Source: Escherichia phage UAE_MI-01. Taken from it: a stretch of DNA of 44,281 bases. This document shows positions 5,047 through 44,281 of this stretch, piece by piece. Both the position numbers and the translations under genes were made by a program. The notes below the pieces were generated by a model. The model made no database searches. It was not told the origin of the DNA and worked only from the letters and a program-made list of their open reading frames with translations. Where the stretch lies: the sequence record MW862804. One strand, written 5' to 3'. Every line of letters starts with the position of its first letter. Position 1 is the first letter of the stretch.

Positions 5047-5748
5047 TTACTCGTCGCCCATTTTAGCGATGATTTCACCAGCCTGTTTCGTCAGATCGGT
5101 GATGCCGAAGCTGTGGCCCATAGAGATTTTCGACTTCACATCTTCGACAACATGCGTCGGTTTGCTCGGCGCACCACCGGCTGGCGTGCCAGCCAGGACG
5201 GATGCAAAATCGGCGTTATTACGGAACTCTTTTTCAAGCTCTTCCATAGTCAGCGCGGATGGTTTGCCATCCTGCAAGACACGCACCTTCAAGCTGCCGT
5301 CTTCGCCGTCTTCCAGCGTCAGGCGGTCCATAACGTGGCGTTGCATGATGCCCGCATTCTTACCGAACAGCTTCGAGGCCAGGTCTTTGGCAGCGCTGCC
5401 GATGGTTAGATCGTGGATCTGCTTGCGGTAGGCTTCGATTTTTCCCGATGTGTCTGCTTCGTGTTTCGCAAACTTATCTTTCCAGGACTTGTCGATCGCT
5501 TCGAGGTCGCCATTTTTGCGCGCGGCGGCTTCCTCTTTCTCTTTCGCAAGGCGCTCAGCTTCGGCGCGGCGTTCGGCTTCTGCTTTCTTCTCGCTCACTA
5601 GCTTCGCGTTGTTGTCTTTCAGACCCTTGATCTCCGCCTGTACTTCTTCGGCGGTCATGAACGTTGATTTATACCCGTCACCATCGGCAACAAAAAGCGC
5701 CTTCATACCTTCCGGCAACGCGTCATATTCTGCTTTAGTAAGTTTCAT
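5047..5748 (-). CDS. Scaffolding protein
   Basis: ATG at 5748 with AGGGGGA RBS; charged coiled-coil-like (KEKEEAAARK, AEAERRAEAERLAKE) protein immediately upstream of capsid. Confidence 0.65.
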   Translation of the reverse strand: MKLTKAEYDALPEGMKALFVADGDGYKSTFMTAEEVQAEIKGLKDNNAKLVSEKKAEAERRAEAERLAKEKEEAAARKNGDLEAIDKSWKDKFAKHEADTSGKIEAYRKQIHDLTIGSAAKDLASKLFGKNAGIMQRHVMDRLTLEDGEDGSLKVRVLQDGKPSALTMEELEKEFRNNADFASVLAGTPAGGAPSKPTHVVEDVKSKISMGHSFGITDLTKQAGEIIAKMGDE

Positions 5749-5903
5749 GCTATCCCCCTGGGATTGTGGCAGAGCAGGCCACCCGCTCGACTTCACGCTT
5801 CTAATATTATCAGCGATAAAAATAATCGCAAAATTCGCTTGCGTTGCGGGAATTGGTTGCGCTATATTGGTTGCACACCAACAGAGATATGAAGGAAAAC
5901 AAG

Positions 5904-6218
5904 ATGACTAACATGACCGTAGCAACTCCAGTAGACGCCGCAATGGCCCGTTTCAATAAAGCTACCGTAGCGAACACCTTTACCTTTCACGCAATGCGTA
6001 ACGCGGAAGCGTTGAATCTGTGCCAGAGCATGAATGCTTCCGAAGCGGCAAAAGCGGCGATCAACTCCGCAACATTTGATAATCCGGCTTGCGGCCTGGT
6101 TCCGGCATCTTTCATAAACGCCCTGGTCGAAGCCTTTAACGATTTCATGTGCGTCGATGCCGTTGAAGCTGTATGTGCCCGCTTAACTTCCACCGGTGGC
6201 AACATCAAATTCAACTAA
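5904..6218 (+). CDS. Hypothetical protein (moron, opposite orientation to flanking structural genes)
   Basis: ATG 5904 with GAAGGA RBS; preceded by TTGGTTGCACACCAACA motif. Confidence 0.5.
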   Translation: MTNMTVATPVDAAMARFNKATVANTFTFHAMRNAEALNLCQSMNASEAAKAAINSATFDNPACGLVPASFINALVEAFNDFMCVDAVEAVCARLTSTGGNIKFN

Positions 6219-6257
6219 ACCAACCGGGGCGAAAGCCCCAATAATGAGGACATAAAA

Positions 6258-7042
6258 ATGAGACTGACGAAAGACATTAAAAATCAGATCCTGGCTAACA
6301 TCCTGCGCGACCACGAAATAGCGACCGAAGCCAAACAAATCATGATGGACTCGCGCGATCTGGCTTATGCCATTACGCTGGACTGTATGCCATTACGCTG
6401 GACTGTATGCCAGAAGGCATTCGCACGTTCGCAGCGCTCCGCGAGCATATCAAGGCAATTCGCGACGACCAGTCGCAGATGTACGGCGTCAGCGTATACA
6501 CCAACAAGGCGACGTATAGTTATAACTCCGACCGCCCGAAAGGTATCGGCAGCGTTTACAACGCCACTTTCGAAATCAACGCAGGCGGAAATGTTCGCAC
6601 CTTGTCATTGAGTGGAGACGGTCGCCAATACCGCGTGCATCGCGGGTACTGGGAAGAGAAATATATGAATAAGCTCGCGCCCGATCTCGGCGATATCGTT
6701 CCGGGGTTCGAGACAGTTATGCTGGCTTCAGTGTGCGAAGTGGACGAGGACGGGAAAGCGCTGCCGATATATCTCCCACGCGGTCGCGTAGACTACCCGG
6801 CGGACCATGACTTCTGTAAGCGCCTGGACCGCAACGACAAGGCCCGTAGCGAGTTGCGCGCGAAGTATGATGCGTTCAGACTCACCGTTACCGGTGTACT
6901 GGACCTGCACAATACTGACAAGAAGCTGATTAAAGCATGGCCTGAAGTTGAGCAATTCATCCCATACCCGGACAAGCCAAAATCCACGGCGGTGGCGCTG
7001 GATGTGAAAACACTCAACGAGATTTGCGGCATTCCGCGCTAA
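6258..7042 (+). pseudogene. Hypothetical moron gene split by a 20-bp tandem duplication (frames rejoin if one copy is removed)
   Basis: ORF 6258..6611 and ORF 6407..7042 are in different frames; the 20-mer TATGCCATTACGCTGGACTG occurs twice in tandem (6366..6405); deleting one copy restores one continuous ORF of about 255 codons. Confidence 0.6.
6366..6410 (+). repeat. Perfect 20-bp tandem duplication (2.25 copies) inside a coding region
   Basis: Direct reading. Confidence 0.9.
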
Positions 7043-7044
7043 CG

Positions 7045-7072
7045 AAAAAGGGGCCATTATGGCCCCTTAATT
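7045..7072. terminator. Bidirectional terminator between moron island and Rz1
   Basis: GGGGCC-attat-GGCCCC flanked by A-run and T-rich tract. Confidence 0.6.
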
Positions 7073-7287
7073 ATTTGCTGCAACTCCAGCACCTGCGCCC
7101 TTAGCTTCGCCCCGCATTCCATATTTTTCACGTCAATCATCAAATCCTCGTCGGGGTCTGCGGACGGGTTATCGAACTTGCACGGCGGTCGCAGTGCCGA
7201 CTCCGTTAGCGGCATCAACGGCACGTTGCTTGATCCGCACGCGCTCAGCATCAAAACTACAATCAGGGCGGTTAGGGCGCGTAACAT
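7057..7287 (-). CDS. Rz1: o-spanin (Rz1-like outer membrane lipoprotein), overlapping the Rz gene in another frame
   Basis: Signal peptide plus lipobox MLSAC, Pro-rich; start embedded in Rz reading frame and extending past Rz stop. Confidence 0.6.
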   Translation of the reverse strand: MLRALTALIVVLMLSACGSSNVPLMPLTESALRPPCKFDNPSADPDEDLMIDVKNMECGAKLRAQVLELQQIIKGP

Positions 7288-7498
7288 ATTTAACAACCTC
7301 TTTTGTAATGGTCCGGTACTCCACGTCGCGGGCTTGTTCTGCCTGCACGGAGCGCTCAATAACTTTAGTTTGCTGCCGTTGGGCTTGGGCTTGCGCTTCT
7401 TGCGCCGCCTCCGCCACTACGCCAGCGCGATAGGAGTCGCCTAGCCAGAATCCTACAGCCAGACCGATAACCAGTCCGATCGCTGCATATTTAATCAC
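7169..7498 (-). CDS. Rz: i-spanin (Rz-like)
   Basis: N-terminal TM segment (IGLVIGLAVGFWLG) followed by Gln/Ala-rich coiled coil; overlapped Rz1. Confidence 0.65.
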   Translation of the reverse strand: MIKYAAIGLVIGLAVGFWLGDSYRAGVVAEAAQEAQAQAQRQQTKVIERSVQAEQARDVEYRTITKEVVKYVTRPNRPDCSFDAERVRIKQRAVDAANGVGTATAVQVR

Positions 7499-16443: not shown

Positions 16444-16659
16444 CGTTCAGTCCTCTTGTTGGTGTGCAACCAAAATAGCAGGGTGCCAGGGTGAATGCAA
16501 CCAATATTAATCACGCGTATGAAAAAGTTGATCGCTATCTGCTGTGACTGCAAACTGCATTTCTCACCCTCCATTCTGCAACTCGCATTGGTTGCCTAGT
16601 TCATCGACGACCGCAATCCGCATCATGCTGCCGTGCGTTATGCAATCCTGGATTTTATG

Positions 16660-16850
16660 CAGTCTCAGACGAGGGGGGTGACAGACCCCCCGTCTAGTCT
16701 GAAAGACTGGGGTTTGTCCCGCTTGTCCCGCCCCCCCCCAGGCCGCGTCATCCGTGGGTGGGACGGGGTGCTGTCCCGCTTTGTCCCGCCCCTGGTCTGT
16801 CCCGCTTTTTGTCCCGCTTAGTTTATGCAGTTTTATTGCATAACTATGCA
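16660..16850. repeat. Noncoding module copy B: hairpin, mini-hairpin, GTCCCGC heptamer array (6-7 copies), C9 homopolymer, palindrome TTATGCA-gttttat-TGCATAA at 16823..16843
   Basis: Direct reading; about 85-90% identical to the junction copy over the conserved core. Confidence 0.85.
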
Positions 16851-16902
16851 CTATATTCACACTACACGGCAACCAATGCGACCGCCTAAAAGCCCATAAA
16901 AT

Positions 16903-16983
16903 GGCAACCAATGCGCGCAAAATTTAATCATTTACCGATATGGGAATTCCCATAACGGCAACCAATGCGCGCAAAATTTAATC
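16903..16983. repeat. Two 27-bp direct repeats GGCAACCAATGCGCGCAAAATTTAATC (16903..16929, 16957..16983) flanking a perfect 16-bp palindrome TATGGGAATTCCCATA (16939..16954); third partial copy at 16868..16882
   Basis: Direct reading; lies at and just beyond the 3' end of the primase gene. Confidence 0.8.
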
Positions 16984-19242
16984 TTTTAAATCGTCATCGG
17001 TCGCTGAAAGCGTGATAGGGATATCCGATTTGATGACCAAATTAGACGACCCATAGATGGCCCCGGTGTGCGGATCGGTATAGAAACCTATCACTCCGCG
17101 CTCCACCATATCGTCGATTGCCTTCGTCGAAGTGCCACCTTTTGCGAGTCCCGCCTGGCGGACGATTGCCGATTTACTGAATCCGGTATGGTCCGGGTTA
17201 TCTTCCATCAGTTTTTCCAGTGCCGCATAAAGCACTTTCTCTTTTTCATTGCGCGGTCCGGCGGTGTTCTCTTCCTTAACTGCGGCCTTGCCTGCTGCCT
17301 TCGCCTGTTCGATGGCGAACGGTGCCAGGGCAACCGGTACAAGATACAGCGTCTCATCGCGCGGGGTGGATGCAATCGGCTTGACGTCCCAACCGGCAAC
17401 CACATCTCCGAAGTCTGGCCCGGTGCTGGTGGACTGGTGTGCCTCGAACGCTTCTGACTTGCGGAGATCCACCTTAACTTTGCACTTGAGCAGGACGAAG
17501 CCGCGCGGCGCTTGCTTGATGCCGTTACGTGACTTTTCGTGATACAGGTTCAATTGTCCGGGCTGGTTGTCGTCCGGCTGTTCCAGGAAGAAAGCGGAAT
17601 CGACAGCACCATGCAGCGCGCCGGACCCGCGTGGGGTTCTGCTGCCGTTTGCACCTTTCGCCGGGTGGTGAATGACGCCCGCACTGCCACCTGTGTTTTC
17701 CGCGATGGCCTTCAGAGCTTTGACCACTTCGCCCATATCGCTGGCGTTGTTCTCGTCGAACGGTTTAGCATCGGCGGACCGCAACGCAACCGTCTGGTTG
17801 AGTGAGTCGAACGCCACCAGGCCAACCGGCTCGCCGTTAGCGGTGCGGTTGATAAAGCTGATAACTTCACGCAAGCCAGATTTGCTGGTGATATCCCAGC
17901 CGCGGGATTGCAGATCGATAATGTGCAGCTTGTCCAGGTCGTGCTCGTATTTAATCTGCAATGCTTCTTTACGCTGGTTGGAGGCTTCACCACCTTCCGC
18001 GTCGAAATAGAAGCAATGAGACTGGACGACCTTCGCACCGCCGAACGGGATCCCTGCGGCAACCGCGCCCATTTGGCCCAGCACATAGAAAGACTTACCG
18101 ATATTCGACTCACCCGCCATGTACCAGGTCGATTTAAAGTTAATCAACCCCTCGATAATCGGGTCGTGCTTACTGAACAGCGCGACCGGCTCGTTATCCA
18201 GATCCGCATCGGTGCACACGCCGTATTCTTCGCCGTCGCCAACCGCATCAACAATATGTTCGTATAAGGATTCGACTTCCTCGTCGTCCAGCCCCGGAAG
18301 GATGGCGGCGATTTGCTTGCGCGACATGTTGTGTGGCTCGACGTTCAGGTGGTCCGGGATCCCGATAAGACGCAGCGCCAGGTGCTGGTGTCTGTTCAGT
18401 TCCGAGCAACACTCGTTGCCGGTGTGCATACACTTGAAACGGATCTCGCCATCCTTGACCATAATGGCGGTGGACCCTTCGCCGCTGTGCAGATGTTCGT
18501 TCGGGCACGGCACTTCATAACCGCGACCGGAAGATAACTCCTCGAATCCTGCCTGGAAGCACCAGTCCAGAATGCCGTCTGCCACTGCGTCGTCGCCCTG
18601 GGTCAGTTCGCGGCGGACTTCCTCTTTCTCAACTCCCAGCTTGTCCGCCAGGCGGAGCAGACGACGGACGCGGGCGCGCTTGCCATAGTGGCATTTAATA
18701 ACAGACTGCTGGTGTGGCAGGTACATCAGGCGGTTTGTGTCTTTCGTGCAGTCGTCGAAGTCCACATCTGACAGGCCCAGTTGGTGTAATAGCGCATACT
18801 GGACACGGCCCAGGTCTTCAGCCGGTACAGGCTTGTCAGTGAGTACCAGGAATCGAGCGCAACGCGTGCCGCCTTTCAGTGGGTGACGGTCGCCGGTTGT
18901 GGTGTGGAAGACGTGCTCCAGCCCCGCGTCAGTGAACGCCTTACGGCAACGGCGTAAAGTGCGGGTGTCGGTGCGGTCAATATCGAAGAACAGGATCGAG
19001 CGGTCCACCGCACTGGTCTTACGACGCAATCCGTCACTGGTATACGCCACGATGCCGTCGGCCTTACGCTTGCGGCGCGCATACTCGGCTTTATCTTCTG
19101 TCTTGTTGATATGCACCGAGGAGATTTCTTTCGCATCTTTGATAAATTCGAAAAATTCATCGGTGGTCATCTGGAAGTTTTCCGCCCTGGCTTTTTCGCC
19201 TTTTTTAGCGGGTCTTGTTACAGCGAATTTAATTAAGCTCAT
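16978..19242 (-). CDS. Bifunctional primase-polymerase / P-loop (RecA/DnaB-like) replicative NTPase
   Basis: 754 aa; N-terminal FFDIDR-type primase-polymerase motif, Cys/His zinc-binding cluster, Walker A GESNIGKS in C-terminal half. Confidence 0.7.
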   Translation of the reverse strand: MSLIKFAVTRPAKKGEKARAENFQMTTDEFFEFIKDAKEISSVHINKTEDKAEYARRKRKADGIVAYTSDGLRRKTSAVDRSILFFDIDRTDTRTLRRCRKAFTDAGLEHVFHTTTGDRHPLKGGTRCARFLVLTDKPVPAEDLGRVQYALLHQLGLSDVDFDDCTKDTNRLMYLPHQQSVIKCHYGKRARVRRLLRLADKLGVEKEEVRRELTQGDDAVADGILDWCFQAGFEELSSGRGYEVPCPNEHLHSGEGSTAIMVKDGEIRFKCMHTGNECCSELNRHQHLALRLIGIPDHLNVEPHNMSRKQIAAILPGLDDEEVESLYEHIVDAVGDGEEYGVCTDADLDNEPVALFSKHDPIIEGLINFKSTWYMAGESNIGKSFYVLGQMGAVAAGIPFGGAKVVQSHCFYFDAEGGEASNQRKEALQIKYEHDLDKLHIIDLQSRGWDITSKSGLREVISFINRTANGEPVGLVAFDSLNQTVALRSADAKPFDENNASDMGEVVKALKAIAENTGGSAGVIHHPAKGANGSRTPRGSGALHGAVDSAFFLEQPDDNQPGQLNLYHEKSRNGIKQAPRGFVLLKCKVKVDLRKSEAFEAHQSTSTGPDFGDVVAGWDVKPIASTPRDETLYLVPVALAPFAIEQAKAAGKAAVKEENTAGPRNEKEKVLYAALEKLMEDNPDHTGFSKSAIVRQAGLAKGGTSTKAIDDMVERGVIGFYTDPHTGAIYGSSNLVIKSDIPITLSATDDDLKD

Positions 19243-19984: not shown

Positions 19985-20527
19985 ATGTTTGAACAAATCG
20001 TAAACCTGATCACTCGCGGCGTAGTAGCACTGGAAATCATCGCTAAACATTATGAAACCGTTGGCGCTGCCGTAGACCCAAAAGCAAACGGCACTGCTAA
20101 GAAAGGCAAGGCCAAGCCAGATACTGAAGTCGAAGACGACGACGATCAGGACGAAGTCGAAGATACGCCTAAAACGAAAAAAGGCGCGGCAAAAGAAACC
20201 AAGTCTAAAGGTAAGGCCAAAAAAGAAGTCGTAGAAGATGACGACGACGATGACGCCGATGACGTGAAGCCAGCGAAGGGTAAAAAAGCTCCGGCGAAAG
20301 GCAAAGGCAAGAAAGATGCCGATCCGCTGGCAGAGATGCGCGACGAGATCAAACAGTATGCCGCTATTATCGCTGGTGGTGACGACGACGATGCCAACGA
20401 CGAATTCGACGACCTGCTGGAAGCGTTCGAGATCAAATCAATCGCCAAGCTGGAAGATGACGACGTCGAAGACTTCCACAAAGACCTGAAAGAAATCGTC
20501 GAAACCTATTTCGAATTGGAAGATTAA
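19985..20527 (+). CDS. Highly charged early protein with alternating Lys-rich and Asp/Glu-rich blocks
   Basis: ATG 19985 with GGAGAT RBS; first gene of the plus-strand operon; followed by terminator. Confidence 0.55.
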   Translation: MFEQIVNLITRGVVALEIIAKHYETVGAAVDPKANGTAKKGKAKPDTEVEDDDDQDEVEDTPKTKKGAAKETKSKGKAKKEVVEDDDDDDADDVKPAKGKKAPAKGKGKKDADPLAEMRDEIKQYAAIIAGGDDDDANDEFDDLLEAFEIKSIAKLEDDDVEDFHKDLKEIVETYFELED

Positions 20528-20533
20528 TGTATT

Positions 20534-20561
20534 CCGGCCCGCTAATCTGCGGGCCTCTTTT
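20534..20561 (+). terminator. Rho-independent terminator
   Basis: CCGGCCCGC-taatct-GCGGGCC followed by TCTTTT. Confidence 0.6.
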
Positions 20562-20574
20562 AGAGGACGAGACA

Positions 20575-20826
20575 ATGGCACGATTCACGCTAATCGAGGC
20601 GGTGGATTCCCGCGACCAGCGCCCGTACTATTGGCTATTCGAACGCATCGGCAGCTTTCAGTCACGAGTTGCCGTAATAGATAAACGCCGTAACACCCCC
20701 GCGCAAATTAAGCGCACCACCTTTACTAACCCCGACTTTTATATTTGGGCAGACTCCAATCTGGAATATGTTCGCTTCGCGGTTGCATCCGAAGCAAGAA
20801 CGATTGACCGCTGGGAGACGAAATAA
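20575..20826 (+). CDS. Hypothetical protein
   Basis: ATG 20575 with GAGGA RBS. Confidence 0.45.
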   Translation: MARFTLIEAVDSRDQRPYYWLFERIGSFQSRVAVIDKRRNTPAQIKRTTFTNPDFYIWADSNLEYVRFAVASEARTIDRWETK

Positions 20827-22680: not shown

Positions 22681-22770
22681 CCGCTTAGGCGCAACCAAGT
22701 AGATTAGCAACCAAGCCGAACGGGGTGGCTTCCAATAACCCCGATACATGTGAAAATGAGGAATTGGAAA

Positions 22771-23556
22771 ATGGCTAAAGTCAACCTGAAAAATGTGCGC
22801 GTATGTTTCCTGAAAATTTGGGAACGTGATACCCCTAAACAGGACGGACAAAAACCGGCATACCGCGCCGTGATTCTTCTTGATAAAGAAGATCCGCAGG
22901 TGGACAAAGTGGAAGCGGCAGCGCGCGCAGTGCTCACCGACAAGCTGAAATCCGAGAAGAATGCCGATAAGTGGATGGACCGCCACTACGCCCAGGATTC
23001 TAAGGAATGTGCAGTTCGCGACGGCGACGAGCGCGATGAAGTAACCGAAGAATTCGAAGGAATGTTGTACATCAACGCTAAATCGTTCAAACAGCCAAAC
23101 ATCCAAACGTCACTCGGCGAGAAGCAGACCGAACAGGGTCTGACCGTAGAAGGCGACGAAATCGAAGGCCAGGAGATCTACTCCGGTTGTTATTGCAATG
23201 TGTCACTGGATATTTGGGCGTGGAACAACACCAACGGCAAGGGACTCGGTGCTGGACTGCTGGGTTTACGCTTCCGTGATGACGGTGAAGCCTTCGGCGG
23301 TGGCGGATCTTCGTGCTCCGATGAAGACCTGGACAACGACGACGAAGATGAAAGCCCGCGCAAGTCCAAAAAGTCAAAACGTCGTGATGACGATGACGAA
23401 GACGACAAGCCGCGCAAGTCCAAAAAGTCCAAGCGCCGCGATGACGACGATGATGACGAAGACGAGAAACCTCGTAAACGTCGTAAGCCACGCGATGACG
23501 AAGATGATGAGGACGACGACGAAGACGAAGCACCACGCAAACGTCGCCGCCGTTAA
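22771..23556 (+). CDS. ssDNA-binding protein-like (DUF2815-type, putative) with C-terminal basic/acidic repeats
   Basis: ATG 22771 with GAGGAA RBS; synteny between DUF2800-like nuclease and PolA; C-terminus built from 54-63-nt tandem DNA repeats. Confidence 0.4.
   Translation: MAKVNLKNVRVCFLKIWERDTPKQDGQKPAYRAVILLDKEDPQVDKVEAAARAVLTDKLKSEKNADKWMDRHYAQDSKECAVRDGDERDEVTEEFEGMLYINAKSFKQPNIQTSLGEKQTEQGLTVEGDEIEGQEIYSGCYCNVSLDIWAWNNTNGKGLGAGLLGLRFRDDGEAFGGGGSSCSDEDLDNDDEDESPRKSKKSKRRDDDDEDDKPRKSKKSKRRDDDDDDEDEKPRKRRKPRDDEDDEDDDEDEAPRKRRRR
23356..23556 (+). repeat. Imperfect tandem coding repeats (54, 60 and 63 nt) encoding PRKSKKSKRRDDDD(E/D)n units
   Basis: Direct reading. Confidence 0.8.
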
Positions 23557-29268: not shown

Positions 29269-29349
29269 ATTGGTTGCATAACCGTATTGGTTGCATTATA
29301 TTGAGGGTGTCCGGTTTGGACGCCCTTTTTAATACCCGGAGACAGTGAT

Positions 29350-30734: not shown

Positions 30735-31201
30735 AACTACTGATTTGTGACCTGGATGGCGTTATTAACGGTTCAAGCGATGCGCGTGCCGACCTGGTGC
30801 CGGGGATAAAAACGAAATCCACCTTCTGGGCGAAGTGGCACAAAGCGCATATACGCGAAGATCTGAACATGGATATGCTGCCGCTGTTGCGCATGTATAA
30901 AGCGCAAGGCTTCGAGATCGCGTATCTGACAAACCGGCAGCGAGAATGTTGGGACACCACCGCCGAACAACTGGAAGTATTCCCGACAGGCCGGTTGTTT
31001 ATGCGCCACATGCTGGACGATACCCCGCCGCCAGAGTTTAAGGCGTGCGCCGTGTTCAAAATGGTCTGCTATGCGGACGTGTCGGAACTGGTCATCATTG
31101 AAGATTGCGAGAAGAACATCGCGGCAATTCGTCGGGCGTGCGGAGATTTGGTCCCGAAAATTTATGCGATAAACGTTGCAAAATTCACTTGCAACCAATA
31201 G
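30731..31201 (+). CDS. HAD-superfamily hydrolase (nucleotidase/phosphatase-like)
   Basis: N-terminal LICDLDGVI matches HAD motif I (DxDG). Confidence 0.55.
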   Translation: MKLLICDLDGVINGSSDARADLVPGIKTKSTFWAKWHKAHIREDLNMDMLPLLRMYKAQGFEIAYLTNRQRECWDTTAEQLEVFPTGRLFMRHMLDDTPPPEFKACAVFKMVCYADVSELVIIEDCEKNIAAIRRACGDLVPKIYAINVAKFTCNQ

Positions 31202-31264
31202 GTTGGTTGCACTATAGTAAACGTGTCGGGGGCAATACTGCCCCCTCACTAAAAGGGTAATACT

Positions 31265-32401: not shown

Positions 32402-34018
32402 TTATTTACCTTCCAGCTTCTCCACTTTATGCAACAGGTGGACGAAGGCGGCACACAGATCCATCAACAGCACGTTACTATCCAAAGACAGCACATCGTC
32501 GGTATACCCGATCTCCTTGCGGTCGACTACAACCTCATTCCCTTCCTCGTCCACCCCCTTGACGTCCTCATAAATGGCGTAACCCGGCAGCAAATGCACG
32601 TATTCTGGGTCGATCCTTGCCAGGTCCTGCGCGATAAGGCCGTATCGCTGTACGTCCGACTCCTTATACTTGAACATTGCCGGAAGCCATTGGCGAACGC
32701 GGTTGTAGCTTTCCTCGCCGTCTGTGTATTGGATTTCTTTTTTAAGGTCGCGGTCCGATAGCGGCGCTTTCTGGAACTCGTTAACCGACGGGTTGCCGCT
32801 GTTACCGCTAATAAGCCTTTGGTCTGGCAAGAAGCGGAATAGCGCCTCAGTCACACCATTCTTCCACACATGGACGCGGTAGTCTGATACGTGTGTATCC
32901 CCACCCCTTACCAGGCCCGCGCGCGTCCAGTCCGCATACCACCTATACATCGTATGCCCAACCCAGCTATCAATCCCGTATAAAGCGTTTGACAGACTTA
33001 GCCCGTTAGCCTCTAGGGGCGCTAACTCTACTGAACTGCCGCCATTCAGGTGCAGCGCACCTAACTTAACTAAACTATCCTCGCCGACCCCAAGATTAGT
33101 GCGCGCAGCGGCTACAGTAGTCGCCCCTGTTCCGCCCTTGGTGATAGGCACTGTGTTCTCCGTAGCGACAGACCCCAAACCTAGATTTGAGCGTGCCGCC
33201 GATTGATCTGCTACGTCTGCCAGGTTCTGAGACGTCTTCATGAATTGCGTAGGGTCGATCGCGTTTTTGAAGTCTTCTGCTTCGTCCCGATACCCTTTCG
33301 CGGCATCTCTGGCGGCTTGCGCGTCAGTCTTCGCCGTATTGGCCTGGTCCCGAATAATGCCGGTATCCGTCCTGATCTGATTCGTCTGGTCCTTGATGGC
33401 TTGCGTATCGGCCTTAATCTGATTCGTCTGCGTCTTGATGGTGTTGGTGGCGTCGTGGATCGCCTGCGTATCGGCCTTGATTTGGTCGGTCTGCGTCTTG
33501 ATGGTATTGGCATCGTTCTTGAAGCCTTCGGCCTCATTGCGAAATCCTTGCGCGGCTGCTTCAGACGCGGCGGCTTGTTGTTGTAGGTTGCGCATCTCCA
33601 CCGGGTCGATCTGCTTCATTAGCTGCGACAGATATCCCCATGACATGCCCTGCATAACCTGCCCGTTAGGTAACGTCACTGTGATTTCTTCAGCGTCGCC
33701 AAAGATTGCACGCCAGTTGTTTTCGTCAGCGATCATCAAGCGCAACGCTTTTTGGGCCTGTACTGTTACGCCCATCGTTGCCAGAGACATGGTATCGCGC
33801 TTAACGCCATCCCACGCGAGGCCAGTTGCCGTGGGGCCGTCGAACGGCAGCACAAGCGTAAGCGCGGTGTCGCTTTCTATGGACGCGATTGCCACGGTGT
33901 ATGGGACTTGCCCTACCACCAACGTTAAGAAGTCGCCAGATGCAAACGCGGTAAACGTCGTGCCTACCCCGACAACCGCCTTGCTGTTATTCGTTACGGA
34001 TAGTGTACCCGCTGCCAT
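32402..34018 (-). CDS. Tail fibre protein with coiled-coil repeats and C-terminal intramolecular chaperone (peptidase S74-like) domain
   Basis: ATG 34018 with GAGGA RBS; repeated IKTQTDQIKADTQAI heptad-like units; C-terminal SDRDLKKEI ... GLIAQDL segment characteristic of auto-cleaving fibre chaperone domains. Confidence 0.65.
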   Translation of the reverse strand: MAAGTLSVTNNSKAVVGVGTTFTAFASGDFLTLVVGQVPYTVAIASIESDTALTLVLPFDGPTATGLAWDGVKRDTMSLATMGVTVQAQKALRLMIADENNWRAIFGDAEEITVTLPNGQVMQGMSWGYLSQLMKQIDPVEMRNLQQQAAASEAAAQGFRNEAEGFKNDANTIKTQTDQIKADTQAIHDATNTIKTQTNQIKADTQAIKDQTNQIRTDTGIIRDQANTAKTDAQAARDAAKGYRDEAEDFKNAIDPTQFMKTSQNLADVADQSAARSNLGLGSVATENTVPITKGGTGATTVAAARTNLGVGEDSLVKLGALHLNGGSSVELAPLEANGLSLSNALYGIDSWVGHTMYRWYADWTRAGLVRGGDTHVSDYRVHVWKNGVTEALFRFLPDQRLISGNSGNPSVNEFQKAPLSDRDLKKEIQYTDGEESYNRVRQWLPAMFKYKESDVQRYGLIAQDLARIDPEYVHLLPGYAIYEDVKGVDEEGNEVVVDRKEIGYTDDVLSLDSNVLLMDLCAAFVHLLHKVEKLEGK

Positions 34019-34098
34019 AGCTGAATCCTCATAAATTGGTTGCAATCCAGGTCGAGCGGTGTAATACTAAAACTCAACCAAATATAGGGGATGATACC

Positions 34099-44177: not shown

Positions 44178-44245
44178 TATGCAGTCCCCCTTTTTATGCA
44201 GTTGCCGTCGGTTATTGTATCAGCGAATTTAAAACAAACCTTATT

Positions 44246-44281
44246 CAGTCTCAGACGAGGGGGGCCATTGACCCCGTCTAG
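44246..44281. repeat. Noncoding module copy A (left part): conserved hairpin CAGTCTCAGACGAGGGGGG-loop-CCCCGTCTAG, continuous with window position 1
   Basis: Matches 16660..16697 (same stem, different loop); window end plus window start reproduces the contiguous internal copy. Confidence 0.85.

Follow-up and report, generated by a model that had tools for sequence, protein, structure and literature searches.

A 20-bp duplication splits nmad5 behind a swappable gene slot in an accessory cassette of Escherichia phage UAE_MI-01

Nmad5 proteins take their name from the position of the gene in the thymidine-hypermodification cluster of M6/YuA-like phages (PMC9476957), and four other enzymes (kinase, aGPT-Pplase, radical-SAM enzyme and PLP enzyme) sufficed to rebuild the M6 pathway in vitro (PMC8989533). 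The closest genetic work is that of Yamashita et al. (2025), who worked on nmad5 in the Dhillonvirus phages SM_A8 and SMS22 (PMC11846954). Mutants that escape the defence system Tmn carry the substitution K216E in nmad5 (K296E in a longer annotation), and reversion brings sensitivity back; a clean deletion of the gene is viable and leaves Tmn sensitivity unchanged, with no escape, while attempts to clone nmad5 failed, apparently through toxicity (PMC11846954). Here we describe the same locus in Escherichia phage UAE_MI-01, a Dhillonvirus whose complete genome of 44,281 bp is the window analysed throughout. Two plus-strand genes, which we call gene A and gene B, form a real, separately controlled accessory cassette of this coliphage; gene B is nmad5, and a 20-bp tandem duplication has split it. 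The finding is real but modest.

Neither product had been recognisable in the initial annotation, and for gene B this no longer holds. Deleting one copy of the duplicated unit, TATGCCATTACGCTGGACTG, in silico turns the split gene into a single 765-bp open reading frame (ORF) of 254 amino acids, and this reconstructed protein matches the whole of the Pfam Nmad5 profile (PF18757, 206.6 bits, E 5.8e-61, profile 1-206/206, against a gathering threshold of 27 bits) as well as phrog_1965. The two ORFs actually present match the same profile with 50.7 bits (profile 1-72) and 145.1 bits (profile 46-206). The length of 254 amino acids is that of nmad5 in all of the 14 relatives examined, namely HK1, SSL-2009a, JLBYU60, SM_A8 and ten IMG/VR genomes. 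In an alignment of 32 diverse family members, L217, W221, L246, N247 and P253 are invariant and M1-T4, G103-G104 and C250-G251 are at least 90% conserved, and UAE_MI-01 has them all. It also has K216, which adjoins the invariant L217, lies near W221 and is present in each of the 14 relatives. With the duplication removed, the gene is thus the same one, at the same position, as CDS7 of SM_A8 (87% amino acid identity), with K216 kept. The difference lies in the kind of allele: those published are intact, K216E or cleanly deleted, whereas that of UAE_MI-01 is frameshifted, so that the role of K216 is moot in this phage.

The duplication itself is simple. TRF reports 2.3 copies of TATGCCATTACGCTGGACTG at 100% match (6366-6412), and the reading frame shifts after nmad5 residue 43 plus 7 more. 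The unit is single-copy in 14/14 relatives, an exact search of IMG/VR for the duplication gave no match, and the exact 117-amino-acid product of the upstream ORF is absent from a collection of 15 billion proteins. HK1, the closest relative, carries the heptamer TATGCCA at both ends of the 20-mer, 20 bp apart, and more distant relatives do not. These 7-bp microhomologies allow replication slippage to explain the duplication, and slippage between them probably produced the tandem copy and with it the knock-out of nmad5. Because a change confined to one record might also reflect sequencing or assembly error, we considered whether nmad5 is intact in the real phage; that the duplication is unique to the UAE_MI-01 record, among the 14 relatives and in IMG/VR, is what one might expect of an artefact. 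We regard this as very unlikely, since the genome was assembled from MiSeq reads of 2x301 nucleotides at 235x with five independent sub-assemblies agreeing on the contig (PMC8281071), a 40-bp repeat fits well within single reads, the microhomology in HK1 offers a natural slippage route, and further natural disruptions of nmad5 are known.

Barring the duplication, nmad5 of UAE_MI-01 is undecayed, with 98% amino acid identity to HK1 (dN 0.009, dS 0.134), which points to a recent knock-out. The gene is a family member by descent but a pseudogene, from which the wild-type protein cannot be made. Its downstream ORF lacks the conserved N-terminal 43 residues and a clear ribosome-binding site. RefSeq and GenBank list this 211-amino-acid fragment as an ordinary hypothetical protein, gp12, with its pseudogene status unflagged.

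The surroundings of the cassette are as the initial annotation had placed them: the ORFs and the PHROG matches of the flanking genes agree on two plus-strand genes between minus-strand scaffold and spanin genes (Table 1). The cassette interrupts the late head operon. This position, between head morphogenesis/spanin and scaffold/capsid genes, might suggest that both products serve in head assembly or in some other structural role. That idea is effectively refuted: the genes lie on the opposite strand, neither matches a structural family or shows homology to structural or assembly proteins, viable phages exist in which nmad5 has been deleted or is lacking, gene A is missing from most relatives, and other phages place Nmad5 in early replication operons. 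The locus goes unmentioned both in the characterisation paper of UAE_MI-01 and in the 'unique gene' Dhillonvirus paper.

Morons, in the sense of Juhala and Hendrix, are autonomous promoter-gene-terminator units between conserved genes, classically in temperate phages and expressed from the prophage. The initial annotation had read the whole cassette as a moron, and there is indeed a likeness: it is an opposite-strand unit with promoter-like and terminator-like elements of its own, and its first gene is variable, lower in GC content and shared with unrelated phages. The likeness is poor for the second gene, and UAE_MI-01 is virulent. When the 3-kb region around the cassette was matched against phage records, 157 hits were returned, nearly all of them Escherichia Dhillonvirus at 85-96% identity, and about 148 of the 157 carry nmad5 at the cassette position, so that UAE_MI-01 did not acquire the island as a sporadic insertion. 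The published identity of 92.6% between UAE_MI-01 and SSL-2009a (PMC8281071) was reproduced by our alignment. The composition of nmad5 is genome-like (GC 53.8%, 66% at third codon positions, GC3), and a dN/dS of 0.12 within the genus indicates purifying selection. The moron description suits gene A well and nmad5 poorly.

Although nmad5 is near-universal in the genus, it is lost again and again. HK578, the type species, has a 135-amino-acid gene only and no nmad5, and in Teewinot only the first 38 codons remain; these two are the sole losses among the related records seen. A metagenomic variant has Nmad5 deleted after residue 155, and an 87-amino-acid in-frame fusion, P0055, on an 8.8-kb metagenome contig, has residues 1-46 of gene A followed by the C-terminal 41 of Nmad5, thus keeping only the conserved tail. 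The UAE_MI-01 duplication is a fifth kind of loss. Such a pattern would suit a gene of use in nature that is costly or dangerous in some hosts.

What precedes nmad5 is far less stable. We compared the interval from the conserved promoter block to nmad5 in UAE_MI-01 and 13 relatives and found a slot with at least five states. In the phage collection, at Dhillonvirus-level identity, the slot holds gene A in about 59 records (including UAE_MI-01, HK1, SSL-2009a and JLBYU60), a 172-amino-acid clamp-like gene of the EP23 type in 16 (weak PF02767; phrog_947), a 135-amino-acid gene in 7 and a 53-amino-acid gene in 4, with nmad5 behind it in about 148; in the fifth state the slot is empty and nmad5 follows the promoter directly. 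Gene A is thus present in some genomes and missing at the same site from close relatives, as a moron would be; there its place is taken by one of three genes unrelated to each other, or by none. All states sit behind the same TATATTGGTTGCACACCAACA promoter block, and the insert junctions are CCAACA and CCCCAACA. A ribosome-binding site and a GAAA hairpin come with each insert of types 1-3; this hairpin (6226-6239 in UAE_MI-01) is the 3' boundary of the swappable module, found after slot gene types 1, 2 and 3 and missing when the slot is empty. The 172-amino-acid slot protein (EP23-type L009 2407-2919) carries the beta-clamp motif RYYLNGV...SDGHRLF and is widespread in Kagunavirus, Skatevirus and Jersey-like phages; the Skatevirus copy adjoins the coat-protein gene on the opposite strand. 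Its phrog_3007 label, 'RusA-like resolvase', is an apparent mis-annotation. The idea that the clamp-like gene descends from the gene upstream of Nmad5 in Jersey-like phages, as its original partner, was rejected, as there is no similarity.

Gene A is a mobile gene in this swappable first slot. Its composition (GC 50.5%, GC3 55%) is below that of the genome (54.7% GC) and of core genes (GC3 62-69%), and a dN/dS of 0.07 indicates purifying selection. Homologues of 52-64% identity occur in a Pantoea myophage, in Ackermannviridae phages of about 155 kb and on other contigs; outside Dhillonvirus they always lie in early DNA-metabolism regions and never adjoin nmad5. Searches of Pfam, PHROG, PADLOC and NCBIfam gave a match to phrog_24635 alone, whose function is unannotated. 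Three further leads on gene A were abandoned. An AF2 model (pLDDT 48, all-helical) was unusable for a fold search, a zinc site was dropped as C83 varies in distant homologues, and the gene is not Ksap1, the Dhillonvirus trigger of KpAvs2, which has 74 amino acids and lies between methyltransferase and phosphatase genes.

Control elements of the cassette can be read from the DNA at both of its ends. Upstream of gene A lies a candidate sigma-70-like promoter whose -10 TATATT and TTGC core of the -35 are kept in 8/8 relatives aligned, and with this reading two copies of the motif TTGGTTGC fill the spacer and the start region. The second copy falls inside the block TATATTGGTTGCACACCAACA, overlapping the -10 and the likely start site; this block is kept in every relative inspected, and a TAT(A/T)TTGGTTGCACACCAACA block recurs at 16466 on the minus strand. 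The initial annotation had singled out both the motif and the hairpin after nmad5, and both stand out from chance: the window has 19 copies of TTGGTTGC where 1.96 are expected, with 0/100 shuffles reaching 19, and the hairpin is unusually stable (Table 1); their activity is predicted. The hairpin overlaps the o-spanin stop codon. Its T-run is the better one on the minus strand, so that it is probably no less effective a terminator for the spanin operon than for the cassette; the HK578 record has predicted terminators at the matching place. The cassette would be transcribed against the flow of the head genes from its own host-type promoter and end at a hairpin that also serves the spanin operon.

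Several further features accompany these elements. The TTGGTTGC sites, about tenfold over-represented, span 5853-39505, with clusters at 16466-16965, 22691-22714, 29270-29294 and 31191-31210. They are mainly intergenic, often paired 12-17 nucleotides apart and often 15-18 nucleotides upstream of a -10-like hexamer; their TTGC often forms the -35 core, 16-18 nucleotides ahead of such a hexamer, as upstream of a Cor-like exclusion gene at 34036. The motif could be a promoter element peculiar to the genus, or an operator bound by a phage regulator. On the minus strand, 5805-5843 holds a weak hairpin that runs into a stretch of T (5843..5827), together with the promoter candidate TTGCGA-16 nt-TAATAT; these suggest that the scaffold and capsid genes are transcribed from a start of their own and not by read-through from the spanins.

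Table 1. Features of the cassette and its flanks in the UAE_MI-01 genome
Feature	Position	Strand	Remarks
Head scaffolding gene, left flank	5047..5748	-	phrog_206, E 3e-50; named scaffold in relatives
Sigma-70-like promoter candidate	5839..5868	+	-35 TTGCGT 5839-5844, 18-nt spacer, -10 TATATT 5863-5868; read from sequence
Two TTGGTTGC copies	5853-5860, 5867-5874	+	upstream of gene A; both conserved in every relative inspected
Gene A (UAE_MI-01 gp11), 104 aa	5904..6218	+	phrog_24635; sits in swappable slot
GAAA-tetraloop hairpin CGGGGC GAAA GCCCC, intercistronic	6226..6239	+	-11.5 kcal/mol, without T-run
Gene B, nmad5, frameshift-split pseudogene	6258..7042	+	Pfam PF18757
N-terminal frameshifted ORF, 117 aa	6258..6611	+	native over only about the first 50 residues
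20-bp unit TATGCCATTACGCTGGACTG, two full copies	6366..6405	+	TRF; repeat register extends to 6412
C-terminal ORF, 211 aa	6407..7042	+	RefSeq gp12; QVD49019.1 / YP_010741626.1
Bidirectional terminator-like hairpin, nmad5 (+) / spanin operon (-)	7048..7068	both	9-bp stem, -16.3 kcal/mol, z = -3.7
o-spanin, embedded in i-spanin	7057..7287	-	phrog_5672; relatives' annotation agrees
i-spanin, right flank	7169..7498	-	phrog_2536; relatives' annotation agrees

What might Nmad5 do when it is made? The name, and the assumption of the 2025 paper, would have it as a genuine component of a DNA base-modification pathway, with a cassette that protects phage DNA. The family was indeed named from M6/YuA-like hypermodification clusters (PMC9476957), and the genome encodes DNA methyltransferases elsewhere. 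Nmad5 of UAE_MI-01 shares with the PF18757 proteins of the Pseudomonas phages M6, YuA and SN1 a full-length profile and the motifs MRLT, GG and WPE...TLNxxCG[IL]P[RK], but identity is about 37-40% over the C-terminal third only, and UAE_MI-01 is without hypermodification genes. The label 'DNA modification enzyme' fails both of the features we tested, a catalytic fold and pathway partners. An AF2 model (pLDDT 79, pTM 0.76) has a long helical hairpin and a small beta-sheet, then a low-confidence linker (233-242) and a short C-terminal helix bearing TLNxxCG[IL]P[RK], the most conserved motif of the family; in the model this C-terminus looks like a docking tail. We recognised no catalytic fold or motif in Nmad5, no solved structure resembles it by sequence or fold, and a viral structure library returned only other uncharacterised Nmad5 proteins. 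As to partners, tblastn with the LKO4 TS-like, rSAM, PLP and gp17 proteins found no Yuavirus hypermodification homologue in the window, and the SSL-2009a annotation lists two methyltransferases only and no hypermodification genes. Dhillonvirus, Jersey-like and lambdoid carriers all have Nmad5 with no hypermodification genes nearby, the 5-NedU pathway of M6 was reconstituted without it, and the gene is dispensable and repeatedly lost. A role in base modification therefore strikes us as quite improbable.

The contexts of Nmad5 in other phages point elsewhere. At ten Jersey-like loci it is the second gene of an early operon that diverges from the helicase-primase gene and continues with a DUF2800/PD-(D/E)XK exonuclease, a gp2.5-like single-stranded-DNA-binding protein (SSB) and PolA; on one other contig Nmad5 comes just after PolA, and in the lambdoid phage mEp235 its place is in the pL operon, ahead of the recombination genes and between N/Nun and cIII. 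One Jersey-like phage, of the Guernseyvirinae type, is Klebsiella phage VLCpiS11a, whose Nmad5 is 28% identical to ours over its full length and whose replication module is 48-66% identical and collinear with that of UAE_MI-01. There Nmad5 is second in the early replication operon, whereas the UAE_MI-01 copy sits 13 kb away in the head region, and in UAE_MI-01 the flanking genes of the Jersey-like nmad5 site (19985-20521 and 20581-20820) lie 60 bp apart. From this gap (20521-20581) nmad5 apparently moved to the head region, or it was lost here and regained there. The absence of an enzyme-like fold, the PolA-module context elsewhere and the empty position here together lead us to read Dhillonvirus nmad5, with moderate-to-low confidence, as a displaced member of the replication/recombination module that encodes a non-catalytic accessory protein. 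In this reading a long-resident nmad5, no foreign addition, would have been displaced in Dhillonvirus from a PolA-type replication/recombination module to the cassette, and Nmad5 would be an early protein whose target is DNA replication, recombination or a partner in the host; it would not modify bases.

The best explanation overall, which we hold to be probable though by no means secure, is a conserved accessory cassette in which a swappable slot precedes a displaced nmad5, recently knocked out in UAE_MI-01. Several points weigh against it. The link to replication is guilt by association, the same type of argument that lies behind the 'nucleotide modification' name, and Yuavirus and Bordetella phages carry Nmad5 inside a thymidine-hypermodification cluster (PMC9476957). 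Our sample of contexts outside Dhillonvirus is small, at 19 loci, with one phage group dominant. A generic sigma-70 scan calls no promoter at the candidate site (the score is below threshold), so that promoter activity there stays a prediction. The duplication is known from the assembled record only, and the 211-amino-acid C-terminal fragment may retain residual function.

A different view of the cassette is that of a dedicated counter-defence island, in which gene A inhibits some host defence and Nmad5 interferes with systems such as Tmn. The initial annotation had leaned this way in proposing a host-interaction or anti-defence role, and the published link between nmad5 and Tmn gives that proposal some substance. 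The slot is an exchange hot spot of mobile, fast-swapped small genes, as is typical of anti-defence loci; that K216E escapes Tmn and deletion does not suggests a gain of inhibitory function (PMC11846954); and the mEp235 homologue lies in the accessory region of pL, between N/Nun and cIII. On the other hand, wild-type nmad5 gives no protection from Tmn and is not needed for sensitivity, which its deletion leaves unchanged (PMC11846954). The published anti-Tmn gene is not at this locus, the proven one being ORF35 of SMS22, elsewhere in the genome. In our searches no known anti-defence family matched either protein, no dedicated anti-defence library being among those searched; PADLOC matched neither gene A nor Nmad5 at E up to 1, and NCBIfam gave no match. 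The commonest Nmad5 context, moreover, is a core replication module. We consider a dedicated counter-defence island unlikely, though less so than a base-modification pathway, and continue to prefer the cassette with a displaced nmad5.

Some repeats elsewhere in the window deserve mention. Units of TGTCCCGC / GGGACA abound in a direct repeat of about 200 bp (75-89% identity), found at 44241-44281 plus 1-199 and again at 16655-16851; one copy is upstream of the tape-measure region and the other in the long intergenic region after helicase-primase. Possible roles of this repeat are those of origin, pac site or regulatory region. Adjoining the helicase-primase gene, 16851-16988 holds three iteron-like units of about 35 nucleotides, each with GGCAACCAATGCGCGCAAAATTTAATC, at spacings of 35 and 54 nucleotides. 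Repeated Asp/Glu-rich coding units occur in the gp51-like gene (20102-20421) and at the 3' end of the gp2.5-like SSB gene (23320-23540), the second with K/R-rich spacers; they call to mind the acidic tails in which T7-type SSBs end. Five copies of a 42-nucleotide coding repeat with a 21-nucleotide sub-period lie at 33363-33530, on the minus-strand side of the tail-fibre region.

The Dhillonvirus nmad5 locus was already known, and there is little here to surprise a specialist. New points are the duplication and how it probably arose, a slot with several states, the lack of nmad5 in HK578, the vacant ancestral site in the replication module and the mis-annotation of gp12, for which the RefSeq entry, with its 211-amino-acid fragment listed as an ordinary protein, needs correction. 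UAE_MI-01 offers a ready-made nmad5 knock-out, with the 96%-identical HK1, whose gene is intact, as its comparison partner. For Dhillonvirus engineering, the slot, with its conserved promoter in front, is a natural site of gene insertion, and new counter-defence genes might be sought there. Nmad5 itself is a widespread family (868 clusters at 50% identity) with a functional name that was never tested by experiment, and recent phage engineering nevertheless calls it 'a DNA modification enzyme'. We find it tempting to speculate, while rating the idea as rather unlikely, that Nmad5 is a non-catalytic replisome or recombination adaptor of PolA-type modules whose activity is watched by host surveillance systems such as the KAP NTPase Tmn, that its repeated natural knock-outs (the UAE_MI-01 duplication, the losses in HK578 and Teewinot and the metagenomic deletions) are escapes from sensing or from toxicity, and that the slot is a site where counter-defence genes are exchanged. 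If Nmad5 does prove to be a replication accessory protein, the Tmn escape data would need to be re-read, with Tmn sensing a replication-linked activity and not a modified base.

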